Shown piece after piece: positions 4,824 through 60,358 of a DNA stretch of 64,000 nt (its first letter is position 1; each line of letters begins with the position of its first letter). The DNA comes from an uncultured Bacteroidota bacterium. GTDB taxonomy: Bacteria; Bacteroidota; Bacteroidia; Flavobacteriales; Flavobacteriaceae. The translations under genes were made by a program, and so were the position numbers. Location of the stretch: NCBI GenBank assembly GCA_902510655.1, contig CABXBY010000001.1, positions 29,398 to 93,397 on the forward strand, read 5' to 3'. The notes beneath the pieces are model-generated. The model made no database searches and was not told the origin of the DNA. It saw only the letters and a program-made list of their open reading frames with translations.

Positions 4824-5473
4824 TTTCCTTTCTTATAGTCTGCTAAGAATTTTTCTAAGCCAATATCAGTAAGTGGATGTTTTATTAAACCTTTAATTGA
4901 AGATAAAGGACCTGTCATAACATCAGCTCCTATTTTAGCACAATCTATAATGTGCATAGTATGTCTTACAGATGCGGCAAGAATTTGAGTATTAAAAGCA
5001 TAATTATCATAAACATTGGCAATTTCTGAAATAAGATTGAGCCCATCTGTAGAAATATCATCTAATCTTCCAATAAATGGTGAAACATATGTAGCTCCAG
5101 CTTTGGCAGCTATAAGCGCTTGACCAACAGAAAAAATTAATGTGCAATTAGTTTTAATACCTTTATTTGAAAAATATTTCAATGCTTTAACTCCATCTAA
5201 AATCATTGGAATTTTTACAACAATTTGAGGATGTAGCTTAGCTAAAGCTTCACCTTCTTTAACCATTCCATTAAAGTCAGTAGAAATCACTTCGGCAGAA
5301 ACATCTCCATCAACAATTTCACATATTTTGACATAGTGATTTAAAATATTTTCACTTCCTGTTATACCTTCTTTAGCCATTAATGATGGATTGGTAGTGA
5401 CTCCATCAAGAACACCAAGATCTTGTGCTTCTTTAATTTGTTCAAGATTTGCTGTATCGATAAAAAATTTCAT
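4820..5473 (-). CDS. fsa: Fructose-6-phosphate aldolase / short (type 3B) transaldolase
   Basis: 217 aa. Has the [17 protein letters not shown]-terminus, Schiff-base lysine context IVVKIPM, and SPFIGRLDD. Confidence 0.85.
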
Positions 5474-5476
5474 AAT

Positions 5477-6280
5477 TTAATTTTTACTATAATTTAAAAG
5501 TATTTTTTCATATAATCTGTCAGGAAGAATGTTTTTTAAAATTATTGAAAATTTCTGAATAAACCGGCCTACTCTATAATGAATTTTTGGGTTTTTTGAA
5601 TTAATTATTTTAAATATCAATTTAGAGATAATTTCTGGCGTCCAAGCATTATCAACATGTTTATTTGCTGAAATTAGAGACTTAGTATAATCATCAGTAT
5701 AATTAGAAAGATTGTGTGATTTTGAATCAATTCGCCTGGAAGCTATATTGGTTTTAAAATCACCAGGAGCAACATTAACTACGTTAATGTTAAACTTTTT
5801 AAGTTCCATACTAAATACTTCACCTATAATTTCAAGTGAGCTTTTTGTCGCACAATACACTCCTCTAAATGGAATTCCAAAATAACCTAATATGGAAGTT
5901 ATATTAATAATTAAACCAGAATTATGATCTCTCATTGATGGTATACACTCCTTAATGATTGCTATTGGTCCCAATAAATTAGTTTGAAATGCACTTTTAA
6001 TATCTGACTCACTTGTTTCCTCAAGAGGACCGGTAATTCCAATACCAGCATTATTAATTAGTACATCGATGCGGTTTTCGACACTAAGAATATATTTTAT
6101 TGTTTTTTTAATTTCGATACTAGATGTTATATCACATTTTAATAATTCATACTCTGAAATATCGTATTTATTTGGATTTCTACAGGTTCCATAAACTTTA
6201 TATCCTTTTGAAGTTAAAAATAGGGAAATGGATTTTCCTATTCCTGAGGATGCGCCTGTAATTAAAATAATTTTAGACAT
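5477..6280 (-). CDS. Short-chain dehydrogenase/reductase (SDR) family oxidoreductase
   Basis: TGASSGIGKS cofactor motif, NNAG, and catalytic YCATKSS (YxxxK). Confidence 0.85.
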   Translation of the reverse strand: MSKIILITGASSGIGKSISLFLTSKGYKVYGTCRNPNKYDISEYELLKCDITSSIEIKKTIKYILSVENRIDVLINNAGIGITGPLEETSESDIKSAFQTNLLGPIAIIKECIPSMRDHNSGLIINITSILGYFGIPFRGVYCATKSSLEIIGEVFSMELKKFNINVVNVAPGDFKTNIASRRIDSKSHNLSNYTDDYTKSLISANKHVDNAWTPEIISKLIFKIINSKNPKIHYRVGRFIQKFSIILKNILPDRLYEKILLNYSKN

Positions 6281-6293
6281 ATTAAAAAAAAAA

Positions 6294-6390
6294 GGGCAAG
6301 CTACTTACATCACACCGCTACGACTATCTACCCTTGCTGCGTTCCCACCCTGGGGGAATTAAATAGGAGCTGGTTGTGTAAGACTTGCCC
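6294..6390 (-). ncRNA. ffs: Signal recognition particle RNA (small, 4.5S-type)
   Basis: GC-rich patch in an AT-rich spacer. The minus strand reads GGGCAAG...CTTGCCC as a long hairpin. Its apex, CAGGGUGGGAACGCAGCAAGGGUAGAU, resembles E. coli domain IV (CAGGUCCGGAAGGAAGCAGCCAAGGCAGAU) with a GGAA tetraloop. A run of 10 U follows. Confidence 0.8.
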
Positions 6391-6394
6391 ATTG

Positions 6395-6402
6395 CAAATA
6401 TA
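6395..6402 (-). promoter_or_regulatory. Bacteroidota-type -7 promoter box (TATATTTG) for the SRP RNA
   Basis: The minus strand reads TATATTTG, an exact TAnnTTTG match, 4 nt upstream of the first G of the SRP RNA hairpin. No clean -33 TTTG was seen. Confidence 0.5.
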
Positions 6403-7500: not shown

Positions 7501-8768
7501 TTAAATAAAAGCCTTCCTTTCATTAGATTGTTCACCTCAATTTTAACACTGTTTATTTCATCTAAATTTTGATGATTTTTAATAACTCTATCGATAAAAT
7601 TTACAATCAATACCATGTCTTTTTCTTTCAAGCCTCTTGTTGTTATGGCAGGTGTACCGAATCTAATACCAGATGTTACAAAAGGAGATTTATCATCAAA
7701 TGGAACCATATTTTTATTGGCTGTAATATCTGCTTTAACTAATGCTAATTCTGCATCTTTTCCAGAAATATTTTTATTCCTAAGGTCGATTAACATCATA
7801 TGATTATCTGTGCCTCCTGAAATAATTTTATAATCTTTTTTAACAAATTCTTCTGCCATTGCTTTTGCATTTTGTCTGACTTGAACCATGTAAGTCATGA
7901 AATCATCAGTTAATGCTTCACCAAATGCAATTGCTTTTCCAGCAATAACATGTTCTAATGGACCGCCTTGATTTCCAGGAAAAACAGCTAAATCAACCAA
8001 TGATGACATTTTTTTTAAAGATCCATTTTTAAATTTTAATCCAAAAGGATTGTCAAAATCTTCACCCATTAAAATTAGACCTCCCCTTGGTCCTCTCAAA
8101 GTTTTATGCGTAGTTGTAGTTACAACATGACAATGCGGAATAGGATCATTTAAAATTCCTTTAGCAATTAATCCAGAGGGATGTGAAATATCTGCTAATA
8201 AAAATGCATCAACAGAGTCGGCAATTTCTCTAAACTTTTCAAAATCAATATCTCTAGAGTAAGCTGATGCTCCAGCAATAATTAATTTTGGTTTTTCATT
8301 TAATGCTATTTCAGAAATATTATCATAATCTAATTCACCGGTTATTTCATTTACGCCATAAAATACAGGATTATACAATCGTCCACTAAAGTTAACTGGA
8401 GACCCATGTGTTAAATGTCCGCCGTGAGATAAATCAAATCCTAAAATTTTATCTCCAGGGTTTAAAAAAGCATGATATACTGCAGTATTAGCTTGAGAAC
8501 CAGAATGTGGCTGTACGTTTGCGTATGCTGCTCCAAACAACTCCTTAGCTCTATTAATAGCTATAGTTTCTATTTCATCAACCACTTCACAACCGCCATA
8601 ATATCTCTTTCCAGGGTAACCTTCTGCATATTTATTGGTTAAAACAGATCCAGTTGCTTTCATTACATCAGGACTAGTGAAATTTTCAGATGCTATTAAT
8701 TCAATTCCATTCAACTGTCTATTTTCTTCTTTTTCAATTAAATTAAAGATCTCTTTATCTATACTCAT
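7497..8768 (-). CDS. glyA: Serine hydroxymethyltransferase
   Basis: 423 aa. PLP-lysine motif [14 protein letters not shown] and the LIASENF N-terminal motif. Confidence 0.95.
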
Positions 8769-8862
8769 ATCTAAAAATTTAGAATGTAAATTTAATAACC
8801 AATTAATAAATCATAAAGAAATTAATAACATATTTTCAAAAAACAATTAACAATTAACAATA

Positions 8863-9180
8863 TTAATTTTTTATATTTTTAAATGATATTGCAGAATGAG
8901 ATGAATTATGAACTAAACTTCCATTTTTAATCACTATTAACTGAGGTGATTCGTGATTTATATTAAAATTAGATGCTAATTCGTTTGATAGTTTTTTGTT
9001 TTTAACAACATCAATTAAGTAAAATTTTATATCTGAAAAATTTTTATAATCAAATTCAAATTTCTTTAAAACAATTCTACTAATTATACACCTGTAAGAA
9101 TGTTTGAATATTACAATAAAATCATCTTTATAATTTATATCGTTATAATCATTCGGTTCAATCCATTTAATTTTAGACAT
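8863..9180 (-). CDS. ytxJ: YtxJ-like monothiol thioredoxin-fold protein
   Basis: FKHSYRCIISR matches the YtxJ T/S-x-C-x-I-S monothiol motif. I trimmed the start to the internal ATG (MSKIKW) because the longer ORF would overlap the smpB start region. Confidence 0.6.
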   Translation of the reverse strand: MSKIKWIEPNDYNDINYKDDFIVIFKHSYRCIISRIVLKKFEFDYKNFSDIKFYLIDVVKNKKLSNELASNFNINHESPQLIVIKNGSLVHNSSHSAISFKNIKN

Positions 9181-9206
9181 TTTAAAAATACTTGTAACTT
9201 TGTTTT

Positions 9207-9659
9207 GTGAATAAAAGAGTAAATATATTAAATAAAAAAGCAAAATATGAGTATCAGTTACTTGATCAGTATAATGCTGGAATAGTTTTAACTGGGACAG
9301 AAATTAAATCCATTAGGCAAAATAAAGCCTCTATCTCTGAAAGTTTTTGTGAATTTAATGATAATCAAGAATTATTTATTATTAATATGTTTATTGACGA
9401 ATATGAGTTTGGTAATCATTATAATCACAAAACAAAATCTCAAAGAAAACTCTTATTAAACAAAAAAGAATTAAAAAAACTTAACAAAGATGTTAGGAAT
9501 TCAGGTCTTACTATTGTTCCTTTAAAAGTTTTTATAAATGAAAAAGGGTTTGCAAAAATTTTAATATCATTGGCAAAGGGTAAAAAAACTTATGATAAAC
9601 GTCAAGTTATTAAGGATAGAGAAAATAAAATACAATTAGATAGATTAAAAAAAATTTAA
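9207..9659 (+). CDS. smpB: SsrA-binding protein
   Basis: 150 aa. NKKAKYEYQLLDQYNAGIVLTGTEIKSIR and a basic C-terminal tail. GTG start in the track. Confidence 0.9.
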   Translation: MNKRVNILNKKAKYEYQLLDQYNAGIVLTGTEIKSIRQNKASISESFCEFNDNQELFIINMFIDEYEFGNHYNHKTKSQRKLLLNKKELKKLNKDVRNSGLTIVPLKVFINEKGFAKILISLAKGKKTYDKRQVIKDRENKIQLDRLKKI

Positions 9660-10297
9660 TTTAAATCTTTTAATAATGGAACAAACTTAAAGTTTCCATG
9701 GTTTTCTTGTTCAAATTTTAATTTTGATATTCTTTTAACAACAATCATTTCTTGAATATTTTTTCCAACAGGAATAACCATTATCCCTCCAACTTTAAGC
9801 TGAATTAGTAATTTTTTGGGGATTTCTTCAGCACCTGCAGTAACTAATATTTTATCAAAAGGCTGTTTTTCCTCAAGACCTTTGTATCCATCTCCATAAA
9901 TAATATTTTTTGAGTGGTAATTTAATTTTGAAAATAATTTTTTTGTTTTTCTATATAATTTATGTTGCCTTTCTATTGTATACACAGTTTTACAAATTTC
10001 CATTAAAATTGCAGTTTGATAACCCGAACCTGTTCCTATTTCTAAAACTTTGTCAGATTCAACTAAATTTAATAGTGAAGTTTGAAAAGCAACAGTATAT
10101 GGCTGTGAAATGGTTTGATTTGATTCAATTGGAAAAGCTTTATCAAGATAAGCATGGCTTTCGAAATCACTATCAATAAAGACATGTCTTGGCACTTTAA
10201 GTAATGCTTTTATTACAACAGCAGAATCAATTCCTTTTGTAATTAAATCATCTACTAATCTTTTTCTAAGTCCTTGATGCTTTGAAGAGTCTATCAT
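9656..10297 (-). CDS. pcm: Protein-L-isoaspartate O-methyltransferase
   Basis: QTISQPY and the SAM motif VLEIGTGSGYQTA. Confidence 0.9.
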   Translation of the reverse strand: MIDSSKHQGLRKRLVDDLITKGIDSAVVIKALLKVPRHVFIDSDFESHAYLDKAFPIESNQTISQPYTVAFQTSLLNLVESDKVLEIGTGSGYQTAILMEICKTVYTIERQHKLYRKTKKLFSKLNYHSKNIIYGDGYKGLEEKQPFDKILVTAGAEEIPKKLLIQLKVGGIMVIPVGKNIQEMIVVKRISKLKFEQENHGNFKFVPLLKDLN

Positions 10298-10352
10298 ATT
10301 AAAATAAAGCTAAATTAAATAAATAAGAATTGTATTTTTGAAAAAAAATAAC

Positions 10353-11318
10353 ATGATTAAAGTTGGTGTAATTGGAATAGGACATTTAGGTTCTATTCAT
10401 CTAAAATTATTATTAGAATCAGACTATTTCAAAGTAATAGGTTGCTTTGATAAAAATACAAGTTTGAAATTTGAAATTAGTTCGGATGTGTATTTTTATG
10501 AAGATGTTAATGAAATGATTATAAAATGTGATGCATTATTTGTTTGTTCAAATACACCTTCTCATTTTGAAATGGTAAAATTATGCTTAATAAACAATAA
10601 ACATGTTTTTGTTGAAAAACCTATAACAACTACTTTGGAAGAGGCTTTAGAACTTGTTAAACTTACAGAAAAAAATAATCTAATAGGTCAAGTCGGTCAT
10701 GTTGAAAGGTTTAATCCTGCTATAACCTCTGTTTTAGATATTATAGATAAACCTAAATTTATTGAATGTCATAGATTGGCTGAATTTAATCCAAGAGGAA
10801 ATGACGTCTCAGTTGTATTAGATTTAATGATTCACGATATTGATATTGTTCTCAAGATTATTGATTCAAATATTAAAAATATTAGTGCTAATGGTGTAGC
10901 CGTTATAAGTGATTCCCCTGACATAACTAATGCAAGGGTTGAATTTGAAAATGGAGCGGTTGCTAATTTTACCGCAAGTAGGATATCTTTAAAAAATATG
11001 CGGAAAACAAGATTATTTCAACATAACGCATATATTTCTGTTGATTTTTTAGAGAAAAAAAGTGAGGTTGTAAAAATTACTGATTTTCTAGAAAAAAAAG
11101 ACAATTATGCTATGGTTATAGAAAATCTAAATGGAGAAAAAAAGCAAATATATTATTCAAATCCAGAGTTAAAACCTGTGAACTCAATTATTGAGGAACA
11201 TAACGATTTTGCAAAATCAATAATTAATAAATCTTTACCCCTGGTTAGCTTTCGTGATGGCTTTAACGCACTTGAGCTTGCAAATAAAATAATTAATAAA
11301 GTGAATGGAAATAGTTAA
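10353..11318 (+). CDS. Gfo/Idh/MocA family oxidoreductase
   Basis: Rossmann N-terminus KVGVIGIGHLG and the VFVEKP motif. I moved the start to the ATG at 10353 because the track's TTG (10338) lies inside a TATTTTTG -7 promoter box (10333-10340). Confidence 0.8.
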   Translation: MIKVGVIGIGHLGSIHLKLLLESDYFKVIGCFDKNTSLKFEISSDVYFYEDVNEMIIKCDALFVCSNTPSHFEMVKLCLINNKHVFVEKPITTTLEEALELVKLTEKNNLIGQVGHVERFNPAITSVLDIIDKPKFIECHRLAEFNPRGNDVSVVLDLMIHDIDIVLKIIDSNIKNISANGVAVISDSPDITNARVEFENGAVANFTASRISLKNMRKTRLFQHNAYISVDFLEKKSEVVKITDFLEKKDNYAMVIENLNGEKKQIYYSNPELKPVNSIIEEHNDFAKSIINKSLPLVSFRDGFNALELANKIINKVNGNS

Positions 11319-50706: not shown

Positions 50707-50791
50707 GGAGAAATGGCAGAGTGGTCGAATGCGGCAGTCTTGAAAACTGTTGAGGGTCACACCTCCGGGGGTTCGAATCCCTCTTTCTCCG
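50707..50791 (+). tRNA. tRNA-Ser (anticodon UGA)
   Basis: Acceptor GGAGAAA/TTTCTCC. Anticodon stem GCAGT/ACTGT with loop CTTGAAA (anticodon TGA). Long variable arm (class II). T-loop GGTTCGAATCC. CCA is not encoded. Confidence 0.9.
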
Positions 50792-50799
50792 CTTAGTCA

Positions 50800-50845
50800 A
50801 ACCCTAACTACTTTATAAACAAGTGATTAGGGTTTTTCTTTTTAA
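50800..50845 (+). terminator. Intrinsic terminator after tRNA-Ser
   Basis: AACCCTAA...TTAGGGTT stem, with additional inner pairs, followed by TTTCTTTTT. Confidence 0.6.
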
Positions 50846-50905
50846 AATTTGTATGATTATTGTACGGCCAGCACTACTAAAAACCCAAAAAATCTCAATA
50901 GTAAT

Positions 50906-50995
50906 TTTTAATTGGTACTACCCTACTCAAATAATATCGGTTTTCTTTAGAGGGGAGGTGTTTGTGTAATGATGTATAATAGTAAGTGTCTTAGT
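50906..50995 (+). repeat. Direct repeat copy 1 (~90 bp)
   Basis: TTTTAATTGGTACTACCCTACTCAAATAATATCGGTTTTCTTTAGAGGGGAGGTG... My ungapped hand alignment gives 11 mismatches in 90 against copy 2. Confidence 0.85.
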
Positions 50996-51045
50996 CATAT
51001 ATTATTCAAAAATCTTAATTAACTTTAATAAAAAAATAAATATCT

Positions 51046-51339
51046 ATGAAACTTAATAATGAATATATTGAAAAGCTAAAAAATGTAGACCTTGAGTGGG
51101 ATTTTGAATATTATGAATTCTTAGATGGAGACGATGAACCAGGGCTTTATTTACTTCGAGGTGAAGATGCAAAGACTTGGAAAAAAGCTAAAGGATGGTC
51201 AGAAGAAAATATTGAAGAAAATAGTTCTATTGAATTTTCACAAACTCAAATTGCTGAAATTCAATCAAATGCTATATCAAATGAAAGCTGCCCTGAACAT
51301 GACAAAATACTCCTTGATCACTTACTAAATTTAATGTAG
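51046..51339 (+). CDS. Small acidic hypothetical protein (97 aa)
   Basis: ORF with D/E-rich stretches (DLEWDFEYYEFLDGDDEPG, EENIEENSS). No motif recognised. Confidence 0.45.
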   Translation: MKLNNEYIEKLKNVDLEWDFEYYEFLDGDDEPGLYLLRGEDAKTWKKAKGWSEENIEENSSIEFSQTQIAEIQSNAISNESCPEHDKILLDHLLNLM

Positions 51340-51399
51340 ATTATTAATTCTAAAAACATTATATGAATTCATTTATTAAAAGATGCTTAAAATTTAAAA

Positions 51400-52392
51400 T
51401 TATTTTACTTTATAAATTAATTCTACATAATCAGGATTAAATTTTTTATTTACTTCAAAATAAAAATTTTTGATTTCATCCATTTTTTTCCATTCGCTAA
51501 CTACAGCATTCATTTTCCTTGCTAAATCAATTGAATTAGGGTAATCTTTTTTGCTAATGAACTTTTCATTATTTTTTAATAGTTTTAAAATTTCTTTTTC
51601 AAAAAATTTAAAATTTGTTTTAAAATCCTCGTTTAAGGCTACCTCAAAAAAACTTCTTGGTATTGAATCGCTCTTATATCGATTGAGACTTAGCCCTATT
51701 GGTACTAAATTTTCAATAATATTTCCAGGTCCCCCTACACTTTTAGGAACAAAATGATCAATATCAACGAGATGCCCAATTGAATAATTTTGATTAAAAA
51801 AAGAGTATATTTTTAGTCTTAAATCGCCTGGTATTTTAGGATCTAATTTTTTGACTTGTTTTAAACTGCAATCTGGATTATCATTTAAGTATTTAACATC
51901 TTTTTCTTTTAATTCAAAAAATATACTTGCTAAACCACGTTTAATGGAAGCATCATACTCTTTTAACGGTCCATTATAAGGGATTGTCCTTTTAAGTAAT
52001 TTTTGATTTGTATAATATTGATGACATCTTAACTTATAATTTGAATCAGAAGAGAGCTTATCTTTAAATAATCTTATTTTATCTAACCAATAAGAATCAT
52101 CTTTAAATTGTTTAGAATAATCTAACACCTCTTCAATTGTGCTAAATACATCAACAGACAAAGTTTTCACAACTTTACCTTTTGCATAAATACCTCCGCT
52201 TGTTTCTGCTACATAAATAATATCATACATTTTTAATTTATGGGAAGGTGGATTTCTTTTATCCTTACCAATAGTAATCTCGAAATACCCTTTTTTCTTA
52301 GAATTGTTTTTTTTTAAATCTCTAAAAGAGTTACTTCTTTTTATCAAGAATGATTTTATTTTTTGATTTTCCAATAATTTTATTTTAATCAC
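51400..52392 (-). CDS. HNH endonuclease with an uncharacterised N-terminal domain
   Basis: HNH motif DIDHFVPKSVGGPGNIIENLVPIGLSLNRYKSD (D-H...N...N). The N-terminal segment MYDIIYVAETSGGIYAKGKVV loosely resembles PUA/EVE/ASCH-type barrels. The GTG start overlaps the upstream gene's stop (GTGA). Confidence 0.7.
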   Translation of the reverse strand: MIKIKLLENQKIKSFLIKRSNSFRDLKKNNSKKKGYFEITIGKDKRNPPSHKLKMYDIIYVAETSGGIYAKGKVVKTLSVDVFSTIEEVLDYSKQFKDDSYWLDKIRLFKDKLSSDSNYKLRCHQYYTNQKLLKRTIPYNGPLKEYDASIKRGLASIFFELKEKDVKYLNDNPDCSLKQVKKLDPKIPGDLRLKIYSFFNQNYSIGHLVDIDHFVPKSVGGPGNIIENLVPIGLSLNRYKSDSIPRSFFEVALNEDFKTNFKFFEKEILKLLKNNEKFISKKDYPNSIDLARKMNAVVSEWKKMDEIKNFYFEVNKKFNPDYVELIYKVK

Positions 52393-53228
52393 TCAATATG
52401 ACATACTTCACAAACAATTGCATATTCAAACATTGAATAATTTTTTTCAACTAATGAAATGTCTTCATCACCAATTTCGGAAATAAATTTTAGGCCATCG
52501 TTATCTATAAACCATAAATGATCAAAATTAAATTTTAAAAATTTATCAAAAAAGTCTTTCGCTGAAGTAATTTCATTTTTAAAAACATCACTGCCTAATT
52601 CTTGGGATGAAGTTAACCCTTCAATACTATCAGAATACATGTAGCTTTGAATTTCCCCATCATCACCATCTGTTAACCCATAGTAGTCTAACAATTCCTC
52701 TTCATCTAAATTTTTAATGTTTTTTTTCAATGATACAATAACTAATCTTGCAGAAGAATTATCTGTATCCCACCCTTCGAATTCTTGAAATAGATTTTCC
52801 TGTAAATCTTCATCCTCTTCCTGAGAAGATGAATCTTCAACTGAAAAAACCCATATCATCTCATATGTATCTGGATCCTCATCTGTGATCAATGTTCCTG
52901 ATTCATATTCACCTCCGCAGGATAATTCAATTTCAAATTCCAAATCCCAACCAAATACTTGAAATAATATAGCCAGTTTTTCTCCATCTAACCCTCCTTC
53001 CCCCATACTTATAGAAGCTTCCTTAGCAGAGTCAGCGATTTGCATACAGAATTTACTGTAAGGCTTGTTATATGTTCTACTTTGGACATCTACTGTTCCC
53101 TTACTAATTAAATAAATCTTTTCATCATTAATTTCAAATGGAATATCATTAGATTCCAACTTTTGAACTTTATCTTCGTTAAAATCTGTGCTGTTTAAGC
53201 TTTTTATAGAAAGTGATACTTTTGCCAT
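52389..53228 (-). CDS. Highly acidic hypothetical protein (279 aa), translationally coupled to the HNH gene
   Basis: Long D/E runs (SSSQEEDEDLQENLFQEFEGWDTD; DEEELLDYYGLTDGDDGE). 4-nt GTGA overlap with the HNH ORF. No catalytic motif recognised. Confidence 0.6.
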   Translation of the reverse strand: MAKVSLSIKSLNSTDFNEDKVQKLESNDIPFEINDEKIYLISKGTVDVQSRTYNKPYSKFCMQIADSAKEASISMGEGGLDGEKLAILFQVFGWDLEFEIELSCGGEYESGTLITDEDPDTYEMIWVFSVEDSSSQEEDEDLQENLFQEFEGWDTDNSSARLVIVSLKKNIKNLDEEELLDYYGLTDGDDGEIQSYMYSDSIEGLTSSQELGSDVFKNEITSAKDFFDKFLKFNFDHLWFIDNDGLKFISEIGDEDISLVEKNYSMFEYAIVCEVCHIE

Positions 53229-53286
53229 TATTTTTTAATATTATAATTAATTTTAAATTAATATTTTATTCCTTAAATTCAAAAAT

Positions 53287-54015
53287 ATGAACGTATTTAA
53301 TAATAGGTTTTTTCTAAACCATTTGAAGGACAAGGATTTAATAAGTTATAATGCTAATTCTTTGTGTGATGTTAAACAAGAAAAGTTAAACCATATTTTT
53401 AGGACGAACGATGTGTCTTATATTCCTATAATAAGGAGAGATTCTGAATGTTTAGGTGTTGTTAGTAGAAAAAAATATTTTTTTTCTATTCTAGATAATA
53501 AAAAGTTTGATATTAAATCTTTAATTATTGAAATGCAAGAGGTTGATAAGGAGGATTCTCTAGAAAAAACTCTTTTAAAACTTAAAAATGAGTCAGGTCT
53601 TTTATTAAAGATTGATGGTAAGATTAGAAAATTTATTTCTCCTCGGGTAGTTTCTAATGCATTTGCAACTTACTCATATAGATATATGATGATTGAAAAA
53701 GTTGAGATTGCTATTAGAAAATATATTATTAAAAATAACATTGATTTTATTGAATTATTGAAAGAAAAAAAATTAGACAAAAAATTTAATAATAAAGAGA
53801 AGGAATTAGATGACCTTTTTTTCTTTGATTATTTGATAATCTTTGGAAGCGCTTGGGAAACTTTGGATTTATTTAAAAATAATTTAGCTGATAAAAAAAT
53901 GTTTTTATCTGATTTATCACAAATTGCTCAAGTTAGAAATGATCTTTTACATTTTAGAAATAATTTAGAATTTGAGGAAAATATTTTTAAAAATATCCTC
54001 AAGTTTTTGAAATAA
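53287..54015 (+). CDS. CBS-pair domain fused to a Swt1-like HEPN domain (putative ligand-gated RNase)
   Basis: Two CBS-like units (YIPIIRRDSECLGVVSRKKYF; LLLKIDGKIRKFISPRVV). The C-terminal helical region has LFFFDYLIIFGSAWETL and the HEPN R-x4-H motif in AQVRNDLLHF. Confidence 0.6.
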   Translation: MNVFNNRFFLNHLKDKDLISYNANSLCDVKQEKLNHIFRTNDVSYIPIIRRDSECLGVVSRKKYFFSILDNKKFDIKSLIIEMQEVDKEDSLEKTLLKLKNESGLLLKIDGKIRKFISPRVVSNAFATYSYRYMMIEKVEIAIRKYIIKNNIDFIELLKEKKLDKKFNNKEKELDDLFFFDYLIIFGSAWETLDLFKNNLADKKMFLSDLSQIAQVRNDLLHFRNNLEFEENIFKNILKFLK

Positions 54016-54488
54016 TGAAAAAAATAATCTTTATCGATATGGATGGTGTACTTGTAGATTTTGGAAAGCAAGTCAAGAAAGCTAGAGAAAATCCTAATTT
54101 AAGTGATAGATTAAAAAATCATCCTGATCAAATTCCAAATATTTTTAAAAACCCTCCAGTGTATGAGGGAGCAATTGAAGGTGTTAATCAGTTGTACTCT
54201 TCAAACTTGTATGATCTTTTTATTGCTACATCACCAGCTTGGTTTAATCCAATGAGTTTTACTCATAAAAGATTATGGATTGAGAAGTATTTCGGTCAAT
54301 TGTTTAAAAAAAAAATGATTATAACTCATAGAAAAGATTTACTTATTGGAGATTATTTGATTGATGATAGATTAGCCAATGGGGCTAAAGATTTCAAAGG
54401 AAAGTTATTGAGATTTGGTTATGATTATGAAAAAAAAACATGGAACGAATATCGAGATTGGGATTCGATTATTAAATATTTATTATAA
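54015..54488 (+). CDS. 5'(3')-deoxyribonucleotidase (NT5C-type HAD phosphatase)
   Basis: HAD motif I IFIDMDGVLVDF, motif II LFIATSP, and motif IV LIGDYLIDDR. 157 aa. The ATG overlaps the upstream stop (TAATG). Confidence 0.7.
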   Translation: MKKIIFIDMDGVLVDFGKQVKKARENPNLSDRLKNHPDQIPNIFKNPPVYEGAIEGVNQLYSSNLYDLFIATSPAWFNPMSFTHKRLWIEKYFGQLFKKKMIITHRKDLLIGDYLIDDRLANGAKDFKGKLLRFGYDYEKKTWNEYRDWDSIIKYLL

Positions 54489-54493
54489 AAACT

Positions 54494-55279
54494 ATGGAAA
54501 AATTAATTAATGAGGCTTTTAAGAGTTATTTGAAAACAGCCAAGCTAGAAAGTAATGAATCAAATATGCCTTATTACATAAACAATAGAAATATTGTTCC
54601 TGTTAAAATTAAAATTGAACAATTTCTTCATTTGATTTCAGTTGATAAAGAATTTAGAAAAAGGTGGTGGAAAACAGCTCCCTCGTTTGAAAATTTAAAG
54701 GATAATTCATTAATTCAACAGGACTCTCTGATGAAAATAATTATAGGAATTTTGAATGATCCTAATCTAAAGGAACTAAATCAACATGGAAAGAAAGGTC
54801 AAGTTTTATATCTTTTTGGAAATGCTGTTGCTTCTTACAGCAACTACAATCATTATTATTTAATCTCAAAAGAAGCTCTTTTGGTTCTTAAAAACAATGA
54901 TATTGATGTTAGTTCACCAGTTAGTAGATCTAAAATCTTCGAAATTAGACACAATAGAAAAAAACTATTAACCTTTGAACATATGTGTCCTTCATCTCAG
55001 TTAATAAAATTATTGATTGAACTTAGAGAAAATCATGAAAGTGGAAAAAATAAATCTTCGAATTTAAGTTTAAATGAAAAGATTTTAGAGAAGTTTTATA
55101 ATTATGGTTTAGTATGTATAATTACTAAAGATGAAGATATGGGATTGAAAGGAAAATTAAGAACAGATTTATCATTTAGCTCTAAAACCAGTACTTCTCA
55201 AATGTTAAATAGATATGAAAAAGCAAATATAGAATTAGCCAATACACTAATTCCAGTTTATGGAAAAATGTACAGATGA
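54494..55279 (+). CDS. Hypothetical protein (261 aa), operon member
   Basis: 5-nt gap to the upstream gene and 4-nt ATGA overlap with the downstream gene. The only suggestive motif is LTFEHMCPSS (E-H-x2-P, as in some His-Me finger/DUF1524-type nucleases), which is weak evidence. Confidence 0.5.
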   Translation: MEKLINEAFKSYLKTAKLESNESNMPYYINNRNIVPVKIKIEQFLHLISVDKEFRKRWWKTAPSFENLKDNSLIQQDSLMKIIIGILNDPNLKELNQHGKKGQVLYLFGNAVASYSNYNHYYLISKEALLVLKNNDIDVSSPVSRSKIFEIRHNRKKLLTFEHMCPSSQLIKLLIELRENHESGKNKSSNLSLNEKILEKFYNYGLVCIITKDEDMGLKGKLRTDLSFSSKTSTSQMLNRYEKANIELANTLIPVYGKMYR

Positions 55280-56766
55280 AATATAAACTTTCCAAATCGA
55301 CTTTTATTAGAGGGCTTCAATGTGAGAAGTCACTGTATCTATACAAGAAACATTATAAATTAAAAGATCCCACTAGCCCATCATTACAAGCTGTTTTTGA
55401 CCAGGGAAATAAAATTGGTGTATTAGCTCAATCCTTATTCAAAGGAGGTGTAGATGCTTCTCCTTCAAGTCATTTTAGGATGATGGAATCCGTAACAAAA
55501 ACCAAAGCATTTTTAGGAAGTGGAGAATCCATAATTTATGAAGCTACATTCACCTACAATGAAGTATTAGCTGCACTTGATATATTGGTAAAAGATAAGG
55601 ATGGTTGGAAAGCTTACGAAGTTAAAAGCTCAACCTCTGTTTCAGAGACCTACATTAAGGATGCAGCTATTCAATATTACACAATTGTAAACTCAGGAAT
55701 CGATTTAGTTGATATTTCTGTAGTTCATATAAATAATCAATATGTCTTAGATGGAAATTTAGATATTGATCAGTTATTTACTATTGAATCAGTAAAAGAT
55801 AGAGTCTTAGATTATCTTCCTGAAATCCCTAGTGAAATCACAAGATTGAAGAACGTTATCGAACTTGATTCAGCTCCTAATATTGATATTGGATCTCATT
55901 GTAATGAACCTTATGACTGTGATTTTAAAGGAACTTGTTGGAAACATATTCCCGAGTATTCTGTATTTGATATCTCTAATCTAAACAAAAAGAAAAAGTT
56001 TGATTTTTATAATAGGGGTATTCTAACTTTAGATCAGGTAGATTTATCACAAACAAAGCTTAGTGAAAATCAAATATTACAAATTGAATCTGAAGTTGAA
56101 GGAAAGTCTTATATCAACAAAAATGAAATTGGAAATTTTTTACATAATCTTAATTACCCTTTATACTATCTAGATTTTGAAACCATTAACCCTGGTGTTC
56201 CTAAATATCAAGGTTTAAGGCCCTATCAAAATAGTATATTTCAGTATTCTCTACATGTTAAACAATCAGAACATTCAGAACTAATACATAAAGAATTCCT
56301 TGCTGATCCAATAAAAGATCCTAGGGTTGAACTTATTGAGCAGTTAATAAGTGATTGTGGACATTCAGGCGATATATTAGTTTACAACATAAGCTTTGAA
56401 AGAAGCAGATTACATGAACTAATTGAGCAATTTCCTGAACATAAAGATCCGTTACAATGCATTATAGAAAGACTTAAGGATCTTATGATACCATTTCAAA
56501 ATAAGTGGTATTATACGCCTGAAATGAGAGGCAGTTATTCTATCAAGAGTATACTTCCAGCACTTATTCCAGAACTATCATACAATGATCTTAATATTAA
56601 TGATGGTGGAACAGCATCTTCAACATTTCAATCTATGATGAATGGTAGTTTTAAAGGAGATGAATTATCAACTAGAAAAGATTTATTAGAATATTGTAAG
56701 TTGGATACATATGCTATGGTTAAAATTATAGATAAGCTGAAAAATAAAATTATTTTAAATTTTTAA
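55276..56766 (+). CDS. DUF2779-like protein: Cas4/RecB-like PD-(D/E)xK nuclease domain fused to a DEDDy-like exonuclease domain
   Basis: N-terminus KLSKSTFIRGLQCEKSLYLY. PD-(D/E)xK elements IIYEATF / AALDILV / AYEVKSS. Cysteines in a 1+3 arrangement (C16, and HCNEPYDCDFKGTCW). The C-terminal half has YLDFET (DxE), VYNISFE (Nx2FE) and EYCKLDTYAM (Yx3D). Confidence 0.65.
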   Translation: MKYKLSKSTFIRGLQCEKSLYLYKKHYKLKDPTSPSLQAVFDQGNKIGVLAQSLFKGGVDASPSSHFRMMESVTKTKAFLGSGESIIYEATFTYNEVLAALDILVKDKDGWKAYEVKSSTSVSETYIKDAAIQYYTIVNSGIDLVDISVVHINNQYVLDGNLDIDQLFTIESVKDRVLDYLPEIPSEITRLKNVIELDSAPNIDIGSHCNEPYDCDFKGTCWKHIPEYSVFDISNLNKKKKFDFYNRGILTLDQVDLSQTKLSENQILQIESEVEGKSYINKNEIGNFLHNLNYPLYYLDFETINPGVPKYQGLRPYQNSIFQYSLHVKQSEHSELIHKEFLADPIKDPRVELIEQLISDCGHSGDILVYNISFERSRLHELIEQFPEHKDPLQCIIERLKDLMIPFQNKWYYTPEMRGSYSIKSILPALIPELSYNDLNINDGGTASSTFQSMMNGSFKGDELSTRKDLLEYCKLDTYAMVKIIDKLKNKIILNF

Positions 56767-56850
56767 TTGGTAATACCCTACTCTAATAATATCGGTTTTC
56801 TTTTGATGGGAGGTGTTCGTATCAGTATGTATAATAGTGAGAGTCTTAGT
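56761..56850 (+). repeat. Direct repeat copy 2 (~90 bp)
   Basis: TTTTAATTGGTAATACCCTACTCTAATAATATCGGTTTTCTTTTGATGGGAGGTG... Its head contains the TAA stop (56764-56766) of the DUF2779-like gene. Confidence 0.85.
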
Positions 56851-56861
56851 TCCTTATTCTA

Positions 56862-57839
56862 TTAGTTTATCAATTTTATTCTAGTTAAATACTGATGAGA
56901 AGTCATGTACAAATATTCATATTTGTCATCAAAAGCACAATTTGCACTTCTAACTTCAATTCGAATTGTACCAATATGATTTCCGTCGCTTTTAATCAAC
57001 AAAACTCCACCAGGACCTGTTGCAAAAATAGTACCTGATGGATGTATTTTTAAACCATCAAATGCCCCAATATCTTTTTTAGATAAAACAGAGCCATCAA
57101 AAAATATTTCAGGATTTCCTACACCATAATCATTGATTTGATATTTCATAATTATAGGACTTTTTGAATCAGAATTAGCAACATATAAAGTTTTTTCATC
57201 ATTTGAAATAGCAATACCGTTGGGTCTTGATAAGTTTTTAATTAAAAGTTTTAGTTCACCATTTGGGCTAAGTCTAAAAACACCGTTGAATTGTAATTCT
57301 TTTAATTCGTCATTATCCCCATTTTTAAACCCATATGGTGGATCAGTGAAAAATAACTCGTTTTTGCTATTATATACTAAATCATTCGGGCTGTTAAACA
57401 GTTTCTTGTTGAATGATGTTGCTATAGGAATAACTTTATTGCTTTGCCAATCTTCAAGTTTTACTATTCTTCTATCACCATGCATACAGATTATTAAGTT
57501 TCCTTGCTGATCAATTGTTAAACCATTTGTACCATCTTTTTTTGAATTAGCAACAATTCCTGAGTATCCAATTTCGTTTAAAAAAACATCCAAACCATTT
57601 AGTTCATCCCATTTATAAATAACATTATTAGGAACATCAGAAAAAAGAACAGCATTTAGTTTTTTAGACCATACTGGACCTTCTGACCAACTAAACCCTT
57701 TTGCAATAATTTCAATTTTTGAATCTTTAGAAATAAAATCATCTATTTCATTTGATATTCTTTCAACAGAACCAATAAAATCATATTGCCCAAAAGAAAC
57801 AAGTGGAATATACAGTAATAGTAGTATTAGCTTTTTCAT
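56862..57839 (-). CDS. SMP-30/gluconolactonase/LRE-family protein (secreted)
   Basis: Signal peptide. SEGPVWS, NSPNDLV and RPNGIA beta-propeller motifs. Confidence 0.75.
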   Translation of the reverse strand: MKKLILLLLYIPLVSFGQYDFIGSVERISNEIDDFISKDSKIEIIAKGFSWSEGPVWSKKLNAVLFSDVPNNVIYKWDELNGLDVFLNEIGYSGIVANSKKDGTNGLTIDQQGNLIICMHGDRRIVKLEDWQSNKVIPIATSFNKKLFNSPNDLVYNSKNELFFTDPPYGFKNGDNDELKELQFNGVFRLSPNGELKLLIKNLSRPNGIAISNDEKTLYVANSDSKSPIIMKYQINDYGVGNPEIFFDGSVLSKKDIGAFDGLKIHPSGTIFATGPGGVLLIKSDGNHIGTIRIEVRSANCAFDDKYEYLYMTSHQYLTRIKLIN

Positions 57840-57917
57840 TTTTTATTTTTAATTAAATATGTCCTGATATAACAGCAATTAATCCAGGAAAATGCTAAAT
57901 TCTAAAGTGAGAATTTT

Positions 57918-58886
57918 TTATAGATTTTTTATATAGCTTATTAATCCATTAAAATAATTTTCTGAATCATCCCACATTGCCATATGACTTCCGTTTGGAC
58001 AGTGCAAGTATGATCCGTTCTGAACTTCGTTAGCCATCCATTCCATTTGTTTTGGATCCATAGTATCGTATTCTGCTCCAATGGATAGAAAAGGAACATT
58101 TATTTTATTTAACTCTTGGGTTACATCCCAATCTTTTAAGCTCGCGTTTCCAACTATTCCAAATTCGGATGGACCTTGCATTTTTAAATATATTGGAAAA
58201 TTAATTTCTGCAAATGCATTAGAAACATCTTCAGGCCAATCTTCGGCAGGTATTCTTAAGACATGTTCAGGATAGTAATTGTCATGAATTAATTTTAGAT
58301 AATTTTCATTTGTGTAATCTTCGACTGCTTCATATGATCGAATTTCTTTTAATATTTCTGGATCTAGTTTAAGAGCTAGTACATTTTTAGCATAATCATT
58401 ATAATCAGGAACAGATGGCACCATATTGGAAACTATCAAAGCTTTGAGGTTTTGTTGATATTTTAAAGCATATTCTATTCCCAGAATACCTCCCCAGGAG
58501 TGACCCAACAATATGAAGTTATCTTTATTTAACCCTAATGCTTTTCTAACCTGTTCAACTTCCTCAACATAATGATCTATTGTCCATAAATTATCGATTT
58601 GTGGATTATCACTTAACGTAGAACCTAATTGATCATAGTAGTAGTATTCTATTTCTTCACCTGGAAAATAAGATTCAAATCCTTTAAAATATTGGTGATT
58701 AGCTCCTGGACCCCCATGGAGTAATAAAACTTTTTTAGACGGATTATTGCCAATACGTTTTGTCCACACATTAAAATCACCATATTCTGTTGAGATTGGA
58801 ATCATTTTAATTGGATCAGTATTTTTTTCGTTGCAAGAAGTAAAAAAGATAAGTAAAATCAATAAAGTTGTTGATGTAGCTTTCAT
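57918..58886 (-). CDS. Alpha/beta hydrolase, proline iminopeptidase-like (lipoprotein)
   Basis: Lipobox FFTSC. LLHGGPG oxyanion motif and nucleophile elbow GHSWGG. Confidence 0.7.
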   Translation of the reverse strand: MKATSTTLLILLIFFTSCNEKNTDPIKMIPISTEYGDFNVWTKRIGNNPSKKVLLLHGGPGANHQYFKGFESYFPGEEIEYYYYDQLGSTLSDNPQIDNLWTIDHYVEEVEQVRKALGLNKDNFILLGHSWGGILGIEYALKYQQNLKALIVSNMVPSVPDYNDYAKNVLALKLDPEILKEIRSYEAVEDYTNENYLKLIHDNYYPEHVLRIPAEDWPEDVSNAFAEINFPIYLKMQGPSEFGIVGNASLKDWDVTQELNKINVPFLSIGAEYDTMDPKQMEWMANEVQNGSYLHCPNGSHMAMWDDSENYFNGLISYIKNL

Positions 58887-58944
58887 AGAATTATTTTAAA
58901 AATTTAGTGAACTAACTGCAATTTAATAAATTAAAACTTATGAA

Positions 58945-59034
58945 TTTTAATTGGTTCTACCCTACTTTAATAATATCGATTTTCTTTGGAAGAGAGGTGT
59001 TTGTATATTGATATGTAAGAGTAAGAGTAAGATT
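58945..59034 (+). repeat. Direct repeat copy 3 (~90 bp, most diverged)
   Basis: TTTTAATTGGTTCTACCCTACTTTAATAATATCGATTTTCTTTGGAAGAGAGGTG... My hand alignment gives 17 mismatches in 90 against copy 1, with the first ~55 nt best conserved. Confidence 0.8.
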
Positions 59035-59056
59035 ATGAGTGCCTTAATTAAGTGAA

Positions 59057-60358
59057 TTATAAATTTTTATAAACTCTGGAACCATACCAAGCAACATAAA
59101 AAAAGCATAATAAAGGAAGAATAAATGAAAAATTAATTTCAGATATTCCTAAAATTTGAATATCGTTTACACCTCTTCCCCCAGCATCTATAACAATTCC
59201 TTGAACTTTTGGTAATAAAGCACTACCAACAATAGCCATAACTAATCCAGCGGAACCAATTTTAGATTGTTCCTCTGTAAGATTACCAAGAGCAATACCA
59301 TAAATTGTTGGAAACATCAAAGAAAGAAAAAATGAAACTGCTACTAAACAATACAAACCAATAACACCATTAATAAGAATAGTTCCTAAGACAAACAACA
59401 TAGCTAATAAAGCAAAAGACATTAATAGTTTTCCTGAATTTATAAATCTTAGTAAATATGTGCCTACAGCTCGGCCAATTGCAAAAAGAACAAAAGCTAC
59501 CATTTGGTAGTATCCAGTTGTTACACTATCCATTCCAAAACCCTCTGCATATTGATAGATATAAGTCCAACACATTACCATACCACCTACATTTAAAAAT
59601 TGAGCCAATACACCCAATACATAATTACTGTCTTTAGCTAAAGTTGAAAATGTATTACTAATACTTGGCATCCCATTTTCATCTTTAAAATGTGGCATTT
59701 TGATAGTTGCAAATAATATAAAAACTACTATAATTACTAAACCTAAAACAACATAAGGATCTCTAATGACTAATAAATCAGATGTTTTTATTAGAATTTT
59801 AGAAGCTTCATCTAAAGTGCTAAAATCTGAAATATCATCTGATTGCAAATTTTTAAGAACAAATTGTTGAGCTACAAGTAGTCCTGCAATAAGTCCTAAA
59901 GGATTGAAGGCCTGTGCTAAATTTAAGCGTTGAGTCGCAGTTTCTTTATCTCCTAAGGACAGTATATATGGATTTGCTGCTGTTTCCAAAAACGCTAGTC
60001 CAAATGTTAATATATAAAGTGCCAAACAAAAAAACCAAAACTTTTCATTTAATGCAGCTGGATAAAATAATAACGCCCCGGTAGCATATAAACCTAATCC
60101 TATCAAAATACAAGTTTTATAAGAATATTTTCTCATTAACATAGCTGCAGGTAATGCCATACAAAAATAACCTCCGTAAAATGCCATTTGTACCCAAGCT
60201 GCTTGAGAATTTGTTAACTCTAACACCTTTTTAAATGCTTGAACCATTGGATCTGTTACCGCATTAGCAAACCCCCACAATACAAAAAGAGATGTTACCA
60301 AAACAAATGGAATTAATAATTTTTTTGAAACTACTTTTGGTTTACTGAGTTTATTCAT
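59057..60358 (-). CDS. FucP/GluP-family sugar:H+ symporter (MFS)
   Basis: 433 aa, 12-TM pattern. The N-terminal VLVTSLFVLWGFANAVTDPMVQAFKK is typical of fucose/glucose-galactose permeases. Confidence 0.8.
   Translation of the reverse strand: MNKLSKPKVVSKKLLIPFVLVTSLFVLWGFANAVTDPMVQAFKKVLELTNSQAAWVQMAFYGGYFCMALPAAMLMRKYSYKTCILIGLGLYATGALLFYPAALNEKFWFFCLALYILTFGLAFLETAANPYILSLGDKETATQRLNLAQAFNPLGLIAGLLVAQQFVLKNLQSDDISDFSTLDEASKILIKTSDLLVIRDPYVVLGLVIIVVFILFATIKMPHFKDENGMPSISNTFSTLAKDSNYVLGVLAQFLNVGGMVMCWTYIYQYAEGFGMDSVTTGYYQMVAFVLFAIGRAVGTYLLRFINSGKLLMSFALLAMLFVLGTILINGVIGLYCLVAVSFFLSLMFPTIYGIALGNLTEEQSKIGSAGLVMAIVGSALLPKVQGIVIDAGGRGVNDIQILGISEINFSFILPLLCFFYVAWYGSRVYKNL

Follow-up and report, generated by a model that had tools for sequence, protein, structure and literature searches.

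The interval from 50.8 to 59.0 kb of a 64-kb stretch of DNA from an uncultured member of the Flavobacteriaceae (contig CABXBY010000001.1; the whole 64,000-nucleotide stretch is hereafter called the window) is most probably the tRNA-proximal part of an additive flexible island at a tRNA-Ser(tga) gene, in which a direct repeat, here named R1, represents the end module of integrative elements. The original prediction had described three same-orientation copies of a ~90-bp sequence behind the tRNA gene and had read them as tandem accretion of DNA at a reusable site beside tRNA-Ser, a proposal that is supported by the loci L159 and L076/L028 of relatives and that for the window itself would follow from homologous units. 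The evidence comprises a repeat family with fixed polarity and tRNA linkage, attachment-site (att) scars, integrase-bearing elements with an R1 of their own, and islands that differ between near-identical relatives.

A repeat search of the window found three direct copies of one family, 93 nt long in register, at 50903–50995, 56758–56850, and 58942–59034, with 88% (copy 2) and 80% (copy 3) identity to copy 1, so that divergence from copy 1 increases with distance from the tRNA; the earlier hand counts of 11 of 90 and 17 of 90 mismatches agree with these values. A 22-nt head pattern, with up to three mismatches allowed, matches the window at these three sites only, all on the plus strand, while 0.02 matches are expected from shuffled sequence and three matches were reached in none of 100 shuffles. 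A nhmmer profile built from 32 copies likewise matches solely at 50875–50992, 56758–56855, and 58943–59046, and the other 55 kb of the window are free of R1 by both head pattern and profile. The repeat is therefore real, but the unit of ~90 bp was too short, as the family consensus is 155 nt long with left and right borders that are sharp and reproducible, and copy 1 includes an extra 5′ head from about 50875. The junctions had been placed correctly: copy 1 lies behind tRNA-Ser and the hairpin and T-run of its terminator, copy 2 overlaps the stop codon of the last gene of the first cassette (TAA at 56764–56766, closing the open reading frame [ORF] 55276–56766), and copy 3 lies 11–23 nt from the stop of the FucP gene, within the ~25 nt originally given.

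The R1 family comprises about 180 copies, which come from 137 loci in metagenome-assembled genomes (MAGs) of marine Flavobacteriales and in metagenome contigs. In an exact-pattern search of one genome per species, ~22 R1 loci were found, only in MAGs of marine Flavobacteriaceae, Cryomorphaceae, and Flavobacteriales and with several copies per genome, and a scan of metagenomes added another 115 marine contigs carrying 148 copies. The copies are confined to variable islands beside tRNA or transfer-messenger RNA (tmRNA) genes or integrases. Among 162 copies sorted by context, 38 lie behind an intact tRNA or tmRNA gene in the same orientation, 17 show a full spacer although ARAGORN called no intact tRNA there, 26 have a partial spacer, 40 have the R1 head only and 10 the core only, and 31 are found 160 nt or less from a contig end. 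The genes preceding R1 include Ser-tga, Ser-gct, Ala, Gly/Leu, Pro, and tmRNA, at least seven different tRNA/tmRNA genes altogether. In the metagenome loci, R1 lies no more than 300 nt downstream and in the same orientation for 29 of 36 tRNA/tmRNA genes (Ser-tga 12, Ser-gct 7, Ala-ggc 3, tmRNA 3, Gly-gcc 2, Leu-taa 1, and Pro-tgg 1, where the Gly and Leu genes are neighbours and their three counts stand for the same few R1 copies). The gap between tRNA and R1 is filled by one of two ~100-nt spacers, type A (spA) or type B (spB), both of which open with a terminator hairpin. The spacer type is independent of the preceding tRNA, spA being found behind tRNA-Ser, tRNA-Ala, and tmRNA, and the spacer of the window matches the spA module at 97%. 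The copies close to contig ends (e.g., L006, L015, L026, L031, and L087) imply that assemblies of MAGs and metagenomes often break at R1 and in the islands.

The original prediction had offered as its alternative a genome-wide intergenic repeat or non-coding RNA (ncRNA) family, and neither half of this alternative is supported, since no Rfam match and no conserved structure were found and the window copies are confined to the island. R1 is multi-copy but bound to variable tRNA-adjacent islands, not spread over many unrelated intergenic sites. A dispersed repeat of the repetitive extragenic palindromic (REP) or miniature inverted-repeat transposable element (MITE) type, or a Tn7-like end, with no relation to integration at tRNA genes, would share with R1 the multi-copy state, the length of ~150 nt, the intergenic position, the sharp borders, and the frequency at contig ends (31 of 162). 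This reading is largely refuted and now scarcely tenable, because R1 has no terminal inverted repeats, target duplications, or transposase genes, its copies occur only in islands by tRNA/tmRNA genes or integrases and nowhere in the other 55 kb of the window, and complete elements have direct repeats of the tRNA 3′ end at their borders and encode a tyrosine integrase instead of a transposase. It is also very unlikely that R1 is a small ncRNA gene or cis-regulatory RNA that merely happens to be located in islands. Its conservation does stop just past a TATAAT-like box, as would be the case for a promoter with a variable transcript, and its orientation is fixed; however, Rfam gave no family match at R1 at either the gathering or the E ≤ 10 threshold, RNAalifold on 31 copies gave −1.55 kcal/mol with 0 covarying pairs, single folds were no better than those of shuffles, a candidate ATG is unconserved with downstream indels out of frame, and the distribution is explained by an element-end position without any RNA. 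A small ORF behind a GGAGGTG box was rejected in the same way, as its ATG is missing in 5 of 31 copies.

Scars of site-specific integration into tRNA genes accompany R1 in relatives. Most of the 17 full-spacer copies without an intact tRNA carry the 13–16-nt 3′ end of tRNA-Ser or tRNA-Ala ahead of the spacer; the exceptions are L092 and L113, where the spacer comes after an entire tRNA/tmRNA 3′ end that is truncated by the end of the contig or was not called by ARAGORN, and L132, which has no recognisable tRNA fragment. The statement that the 90-nt repeat does not derive from the tRNA holds, yet the internal copies of relatives follow a spacer and such a fragment. Foreign tRNA fragments are present in some islands; for example, L028 carries the fragment TTCTTCTCCGC against CTTTCTCCGC in its own tRNA, and L128 carries a Ser(gct)-type fragment within a Ser(tga) island. 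A direct repeat of the tRNA 3′ end opposite the intact tRNA occurs in L159, L076, L028, L023, L071, L140, and others, and the window has the intact tRNA end only, with no tRNA fragment at copies 2 and 3.

In the first loci, integrases were absent from the 20 ORFs adjoining R1. A jackhmmer search over 718 ORFs, seeded with an Escherichia coli XerD sequence and confirmed with Pfam, found three tyrosine integrases, each on the tRNA side of an R1, all of which had been missed by a prior regular-expression screen. They combine a Phage_integrase domain with Arm-DNA-bind_5 or SAM_5; no curated family matches the island integrases, and a search of PDB with the integrase of the L076 type gave no match. 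Homologues of the L076-type integrase, retrieved with 10-kb flanks, occur together with a HTH_17 protein in 10 loci, including L159 at the same TauE–tRNA-Ser site as in the window. The window itself lacks integrase genes, as first noted, by Pfam over the ORFs of 46.6–64 kb and by tblastn with XerD and the three island integrases.

The TauE–tRNA-Ser interval, when compared among relatives as the original prediction had suggested, differs in cassette content, and in L159 it holds an integrase-bearing element. This relative is ~88% identical to the window in DNA across TauE, tRNA-Ser, and R1, and the 100 nt upstream of its tRNA look the same by eye. Its element of ~11 kb consists of tRNA-Ser(tga), spB, R1, cargo (proteins of 92 and 486 aa, GmrSD, and the restriction-modification genes HsdR, HsdS, and HsdM), a HTH_17 excisionase, a tyrosine integrase, and a P arm, and its far end carries CCTCTTTCTCCGC, which is 13 nt of the tRNA 3′ end, followed by an older spA and R1. 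L159 is thus the postulated accretion step, an element with its own tRNA-proximal R1 inserted before an older spA–R1. Similarly, L162 has the order spB, R1, helicase/methyltransferase, HNH, GIY-YIG, excisionase, integrase, P arm, and tRNA fragment, and beyond its far end lies a polysaccharide-utilisation locus that contains no R1; as R1 is present on the element side only, it is part of the element rather than of the host flank. An occupied and an unoccupied site are seen in L076 and L028, respectively, before one identical downstream array, which in L076 is preceded by an integrase, a partial tRNA, spA, and R1 and in L028 directly follows the intact tRNA-Ser. Differences of the occupied/empty type also separate the window from L159, L128, and L063. 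A smaller unit is represented by L140, a contig of 5539 nt with a 5.4-kb integrase-less unit made up of spA, R1, a TonB-dependent receptor, PepSY_TM, a P arm, and a tRNA-Ala 3′ end, which is a candidate non-autonomous nutrient-uptake cassette.

Short direct repeats recur at both ends of such elements. GTTGCC-N6-GTTGCC was counted 28 times within spB, ahead of R1, and 10 times before the starts of L076-type integrases (10 of 10), with a single further site, a pattern as expected for arm-type sites on both arms of an attP, although judged from its sequence and position it could be a promoter or operator of the integrase instead. The analogous motif of spA, TTGTACG-N4-TTGTACG, can also be seen ahead of the L052-type integrase and in the L140 P arm, and the pair TTGTATG-N4-TTGTACG in the window presumably represents the arm-type sites of the tRNA-proximal (P′) arm. 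The L052-type integrase, a tyrosine integrase of 405 aa, marks a second hotspot: it always lies 178 nt downstream of mnmE (L151–L158, L150 at 10001–11292, and L052 at 8809–10110), is common in marine metagenomes at 90–98% identity, has TTGTACA-N5-TTGTACA immediately upstream of its start, and is followed by variable genes, mostly with a HTH_17 excisionase. A fixed link between this integrase and R1 was rejected, as eight of these loci (L151–L158) have no R1; R1 arrays stand behind it only sometimes, and the integrase is therefore not specifically R1-linked. A similarity of R1 to the region upstream of the L085 integrase was not significant (local score 25 against 18.3 ± 2.6 for shuffles, with a maximum of 31).

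The islands are flexible in content while their tRNA side is a syntenic core of 74–98% DNA identity; beyond R1, the content varies by genome. In 19 contigs with the TauE–tRNA-Ser(tga) site, at least 10 different first cassettes were found, and cassettes reappear in varied orders, so that relatives do not share an identical cassette content and order. For example, L128 shares 98% core identity with the window, but three other small genes replace cassette 1, and these are followed by spB, R1, and SMP-30 at 97% identity and then by a sulfatase where the window has PIP. In L063, with a core identity of 90%, tRNA-Ser and spB precede an R1 head fused to PIP and then an R1 core matching copy 3 of the window, and the PIP gene with its upstream region lies between split R1 halves in both L063 and L119. 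The unit of R1 and SMP-30 is 93–97% identical in L128, L098, and L054, all in different contexts, and cassette 1 is found in L053 and L134 at 91–97% identity, where its junctions differ and the HNH gene is missing. At least six contigs contain DUF2779 with R1 behind it, and in FRAM18_bin141 this unit is 92% identical to that of the window, compared with 75% for the core genes of that MAG. The greater similarity of cargo than of core between genomes is read as horizontal flow. The cargo types are defence or nutrient-uptake genes, and no large gene family recurs in R1 loci except adhesin-like proteins. Single insertions and deletions can also be seen between close relatives: the 97-aa ORF and the HNH-like gene (window 50996–52392) are inserted in comparison with L134, in which the stop of the 279-aa gene directly adjoins R1, and L053 has the 97-aa ORF without window 51347–52838 (the HNH gene together with the 3′ portion of the 279-aa gene), the indel between the window and L134/L053 sitting right at an R1 tail.

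A complete element of this kind begins with a reconstituted tRNA 3′ end and a terminator, after which come spA or spB with putative arm-type repeats, R1, a cargo mostly oriented back to the tRNA, a HTH_17 excisionase, a tyrosine integrase, a P arm, and a 13–16-nt tRNA 3′ repeat. A new element would integrate into the intact tRNA gene and move earlier elements inward, and successive integration at the intact tRNA would lead R1 copies to pile up in one orientation. An age gradient supports this order: identity to the consensus averages 96% for tRNA-adjacent copies and 90–94% for internal copies, and in the window identity to copy 1 drops from 88% to 80% away from the tRNA. Later deletion would strip the integrase, excisionase, P arm, tRNA fragment, and spacer, leaving cargo blocks bounded by R1 as in the window, whose three copies probably arose in this way by accretion and loss of the integrase module, as judged by analogy with the elements of relatives. 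The leftover R1 sequences, about 100–150 nt long and 80–97% identical, would probably serve as portable homology for deletions and for reshuffling of cassettes between islands, and integrase-less units such as L140 and the 4.7-kb block of L028/L076 presumably move in trans.

Several points weigh against this reconstruction. No spacer, partial tRNA, or integrase remnant was found at copies 2 and 3 of the window, and for lack of a spacer and tRNA fragment there, accretion in the window is read from units elsewhere. Over the whole family, 76 of 131 R1 copies of known context have no full spacer and tRNA fragment; if these copies are relics, deletion must be frequent and must often end at R1 borders. 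Cassettes recombine combinatorially and are not strictly nested, SMP-30 being followed by PIP in the window and by a sulfatase in L128, and accretion alone does not account for this. In addition, no integrase was found beside a P arm of type A, and the ends of L140 are complete without one. The identity values are biased upward because all copies were gathered via exact-pattern matches, and the copy counts exceed the number of independent events, many of the metagenome contigs coming from the same populations.

In a different reading, R1 is a recombination site in the manner of an integron, and a recombinase encoded elsewhere would cut and join at a fixed point near the palindrome AATT-TTT-AATT and move units of R1 plus gene among islands at different tRNAs. 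The R1 borders are sharp and many cassettes have gene stops 0–3 nt from the end of the tail; truncation ends cluster at consensus positions 31–50, AATTTTTAATTGGTACTACC (7 left and 13 right ends, against almost none at 51–75); the PIP cassette is flanked by the head and the core of R1 in L063, L119, and the window, the split lying exactly at AATTTTTAATTGGTACTACC; the same R1-plus-gene unit occurs in at least four contexts; and the integrases of L052 and L150, 50% identical, stand just upstream of R1 arrays without a tRNA. This reading is nevertheless unlikely, as R1 has no hairpin of the attC type and no dyad symmetry, no integrase is consistently linked to it (the L052 type lacks R1 in eight loci), the island integrases score ~27 bits against the integron-integrase model with its cut-off of 265, homology between genomes ends also at core positions 45–50 and 61, as expected for homologous recombination, and the clustered breakpoints represent a handful of independent events. 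An extended version of this idea, in which R1 and two further modules, R3 and R2sp (described below), form an integron-like platform on which a recombinase acting in trans inserts, excises, and shuffles single-gene cassettes for secreted enzymes across islands, is improbable to a similar degree. The end of R1 has a wider occurrence: its last ~30 nt (AAGAAGAAGATATGCCTATGGTTTA) are also found alone, exactly at stop codons of cassette genes (L091 at 4291–4312, 4854–4872, 6131–6159, and 8355–8383; L020 at 1512–1540; and L015 at 4646–4674), and the final TTA of AAGAAGAAGATATGCCTATGGTTTA often gives a TAA stop on the opposite strand.

With R1 taken as the end module of integrative elements, its role is at best guess, from its composition and position, that of an end-of-element insulator or terminator for co-directional cargo, or that of an accessory recombination region. 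Because R1 is carried by spA and spB elements alike, whose arm sites differ, its role probably does not depend on the specificity of the integrase. Among the downstream neighbour genes, 117 converge on R1 and 28 have the same orientation, with stops 0–70 nt from the R1 tail. A mainly transcriptional function, as a Rho-dependent terminator or insulator on the cargo strand that shields the tRNA/tmRNA and the next cassette, is a tentative possibility and is compatible with the element-end position. It would account for the convergence of genes on the tail (117:28) with directly adjoining stops, for the presence of R1 in both spA and spB elements, for the base composition of the 3′ half (24 G and 5 C on the plus strand, which makes the cargo strand C-rich and G-poor in a genome of ~27% GC), and for the folding of copies 1 and 2, which is worse than that of shuffles on both strands (z of +1.2 to +1.7; for copy 3, z is near zero, −0.09 on the plus and +0.40 on the minus strand). 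An insulator or Rho-type terminator is a reasonable guess because of this C-rich cargo strand, the poor folding, and the position at the last co-directional stop. However, R1 shows neither a promoter nor an intrinsic-terminator pattern, Rho-utilisation sites are normally without conservation at the sequence level, and the best-conserved part of R1, its 5′ half, lacks such C-richness on the cargo strand. A promoter or terminator within R1 was rejected as a candidate in its own right, no consistent sigma-70-type or intrinsic-terminator pattern being found across the three window copies, and inspection by eye for the −33/−7 elements of Bacteroidetes (TTTG/TAnnTTTG) gave no good match in R1. Mimicry of a phage attP, cos, or pac site was also rejected, with 0 matches of two R1 patterns in IMG/VR. 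The high identity of R1 between genomes need not mean strong constraint, since cargo genes and spacers are equally similar, and this equal similarity of R1, cargo, and spacers is as expected for a rapidly circulating pool of elements.

The features of the window's island are collected in Table 1. The window has a GC content of ~27%; the core genes LptF/G, RibBA, and TauE lie upstream of tRNA-Ser and GH92 and SusD come after FucP, all by Pfam; an exact search for the GH92 protein of the window gave no record.

TABLE 1. Features of the tRNA-Ser(tga) island, with positions given in window numbering.
Feature	Position	Strand	Description
tRNA-Ser(tga)	50707–50792	+	ARAGORN, Rfam tRNA
Spacer type A (spA)	50793–50886	+	Terminator hairpin and T-run, then TTGTATG-N4-TTGTACG direct repeats
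R1 copy 1	50875–50995	+	Head and core; adjoins tRNA; most complete copy
Cassette 1	51046–56766 (5.8 kb)	both	Nuclease-rich block (Pfam, PADLOC, NCBIfam); in order: 97-aa ORF (+), HNH-like protein (−), 279-aa protein (−), 242-aa protein with weak similarity to DS11 anti-phage protein (+), NT5C nucleotidase (+), 261-aa protein (+), DUF2779/Cas4-like nuclease (+)
R1 copy 2	56758–56855	+	Head diverged and joined to the stop codon of DUF2779; 7 nt between the end of the tail and the SMP-30 stop
SMP-30/gluconolactonase-family gene	56862–57839	−	Pfam; first 54 nt are the signal-peptide DNA module R2sp
PIP, proline-iminopeptidase-family alpha/beta hydrolase	57918–58886	−	NCBIfam TIGR01250, 301 bits
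R1 copy 3	58943–59046	+	Core without head; most diverged copy; ends 11–23 nt before the FucP stop
FucP, L-fucose:H+ symporter	59057–60358	−	NCBIfam TIGR00885, 496 bits; first gene past the last R1

Two further short modules recur on cassette genes. The DNA encoding the signal peptide of the SMP-30 protein (MKKLILLLLYIPLVSFGQ, window 57786–57858 on the minus strand) recurs at 83–96% identity at the starts of many unrelated island genes, with copies in L015 (six copies), L020, L021, L023, L024, L028, L076, and L091, and this module, named R2sp, looks like a shared signal-peptide DNA module. A second module of ~38–60 nt, R3 (AATTCTTAGTGCAATCAAAATAGTTAACAGTAGTTACA), lies 15–25 nt upstream of the start codon in many cassette genes, often separating the gene from the partial tRNA or R1 that comes next (L010 at 3275–3312, L024 at 6098–6135, L028 at 4924–4945, L098 at 4843–4879, and others, with a degenerate copy at window 58890–58940); a shared promoter or 5′ untranslated region is possible. 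Apart from the island, the window encodes a Bacteroidales-type small signal recognition particle RNA at 6290–6397 on the minus strand (103 bits), in support of its assignment to the Bacteroidota.

Marine Flavobacteriales are among the main degraders of algal polysaccharides, and their gene content varies widely between strains. The organisation and exchange of this flexible gene pool can be approached through defined sequences, namely R1 with its 155 nt, spA and spB with their putative arm repeats, and the two integrase families. R1 can be used as a marker of island boundaries, accounts for frequent breaks in MAG assemblies, and can be used to retrieve cargo such as defence systems, TonB receptors, sulfatases, and peptidases from metagenomes. 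The findings also extend to Bacteroidota the model of tRNA-seeded islands fed by transient elements, which was worked out mainly for Prochlorococcus and some Proteobacteria.

The tycheposons of Prochlorococcus target Pro-tgg, Ser-tga, Ala-ggc, Thr, Arg, Met, and tmRNA (bioRxiv 10.1101/2020.12.28.424599), and Ser-tga, Ala-ggc, Pro-tgg, and tmRNA are targets common to both systems. Both have streamlined marine hosts and cargo elements with a tyrosine recombinase at few tRNA/tmRNA genes, and the tycheposon islands also share with the present islands the inward push of old elements, the scattered partial tRNAs, and a majority of islands without an active element. The host here is a member of the Bacteroidota, whereas the preprint places relatives in Alpha-, Gamma-, and Deltaproteobacteria only (10.1101/2020.12.28.424599). 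The integrases here have Arm-DNA-bind_5 or SAM_5 N-terminal domains and no replication or hallmark genes were seen in the elements, and the repeats described for the tycheposons are partial tRNAs, whereas here the ~155-nt R1, which is not a tRNA, and the spacers mark the element end. Membership of the tycheposon clade finds no support in the integrase domain architecture or in the missing match to a curated family.

Additive flexible genomic islands are known as hotspots at tRNA/tmRNA genes with strain-specific combinations of cassettes, which are nearly identical across divergent cores, in Alteromonas (PMC4898812) and Methylophilaceae (PMC10872708). The present island similarly has a fixed tRNA-adjacent site, cassettes that differ in close relatives, and cassettes that are more similar than the core. 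The repeats of those islands, however, are the last ~20 nt of the tRNA, whereas here a longer, element-borne module occurs at seven or more tRNA/tmRNA genes. In the integrative and conjugative elements of Streptococcus, accretion and mobilisation involve cis-mobilisable elements (CIMEs), integrase-less units that keep their att ends, and Bacteroides has the mobilisable transposons NBU1 and NBU2 (non-replicating Bacteroides units), of which NBU2 integrates into the 3′ end of tRNA-Ser. By analogy, the integrase-less units with att ends that stand here in tandem with integrase-bearing elements at one tRNA site would resemble CIMEs, and the short tRNA core (about 13–16 nt) and the putative long attP with integrase-binding repeats on both arms would resemble the NBU elements. 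No mob or oriT genes were seen here, in contrast to both, and mobilisation in trans is presumed. Integrons (attC sites, including the Vibrio cholerae repeats [VCR] of Vibrio) have in common with the R1 arrays the cassettes of one to few genes, a same-orientation repeat of ~100–150 nt that begins right at the stop codon of the preceding gene, and a combinatorial order; R1 differs in having no imperfect palindrome, no integrase of the IntI type, and no attI or cassette promoter (Pc), and its arrays begin at tRNA genes. No description of R1 or of this element family was found in the literature searched. While the general kind, islands built by targeting of tRNA genes, is already known, the family of marine Flavobacteriales elements with a recognisable 155-nt end module is new.

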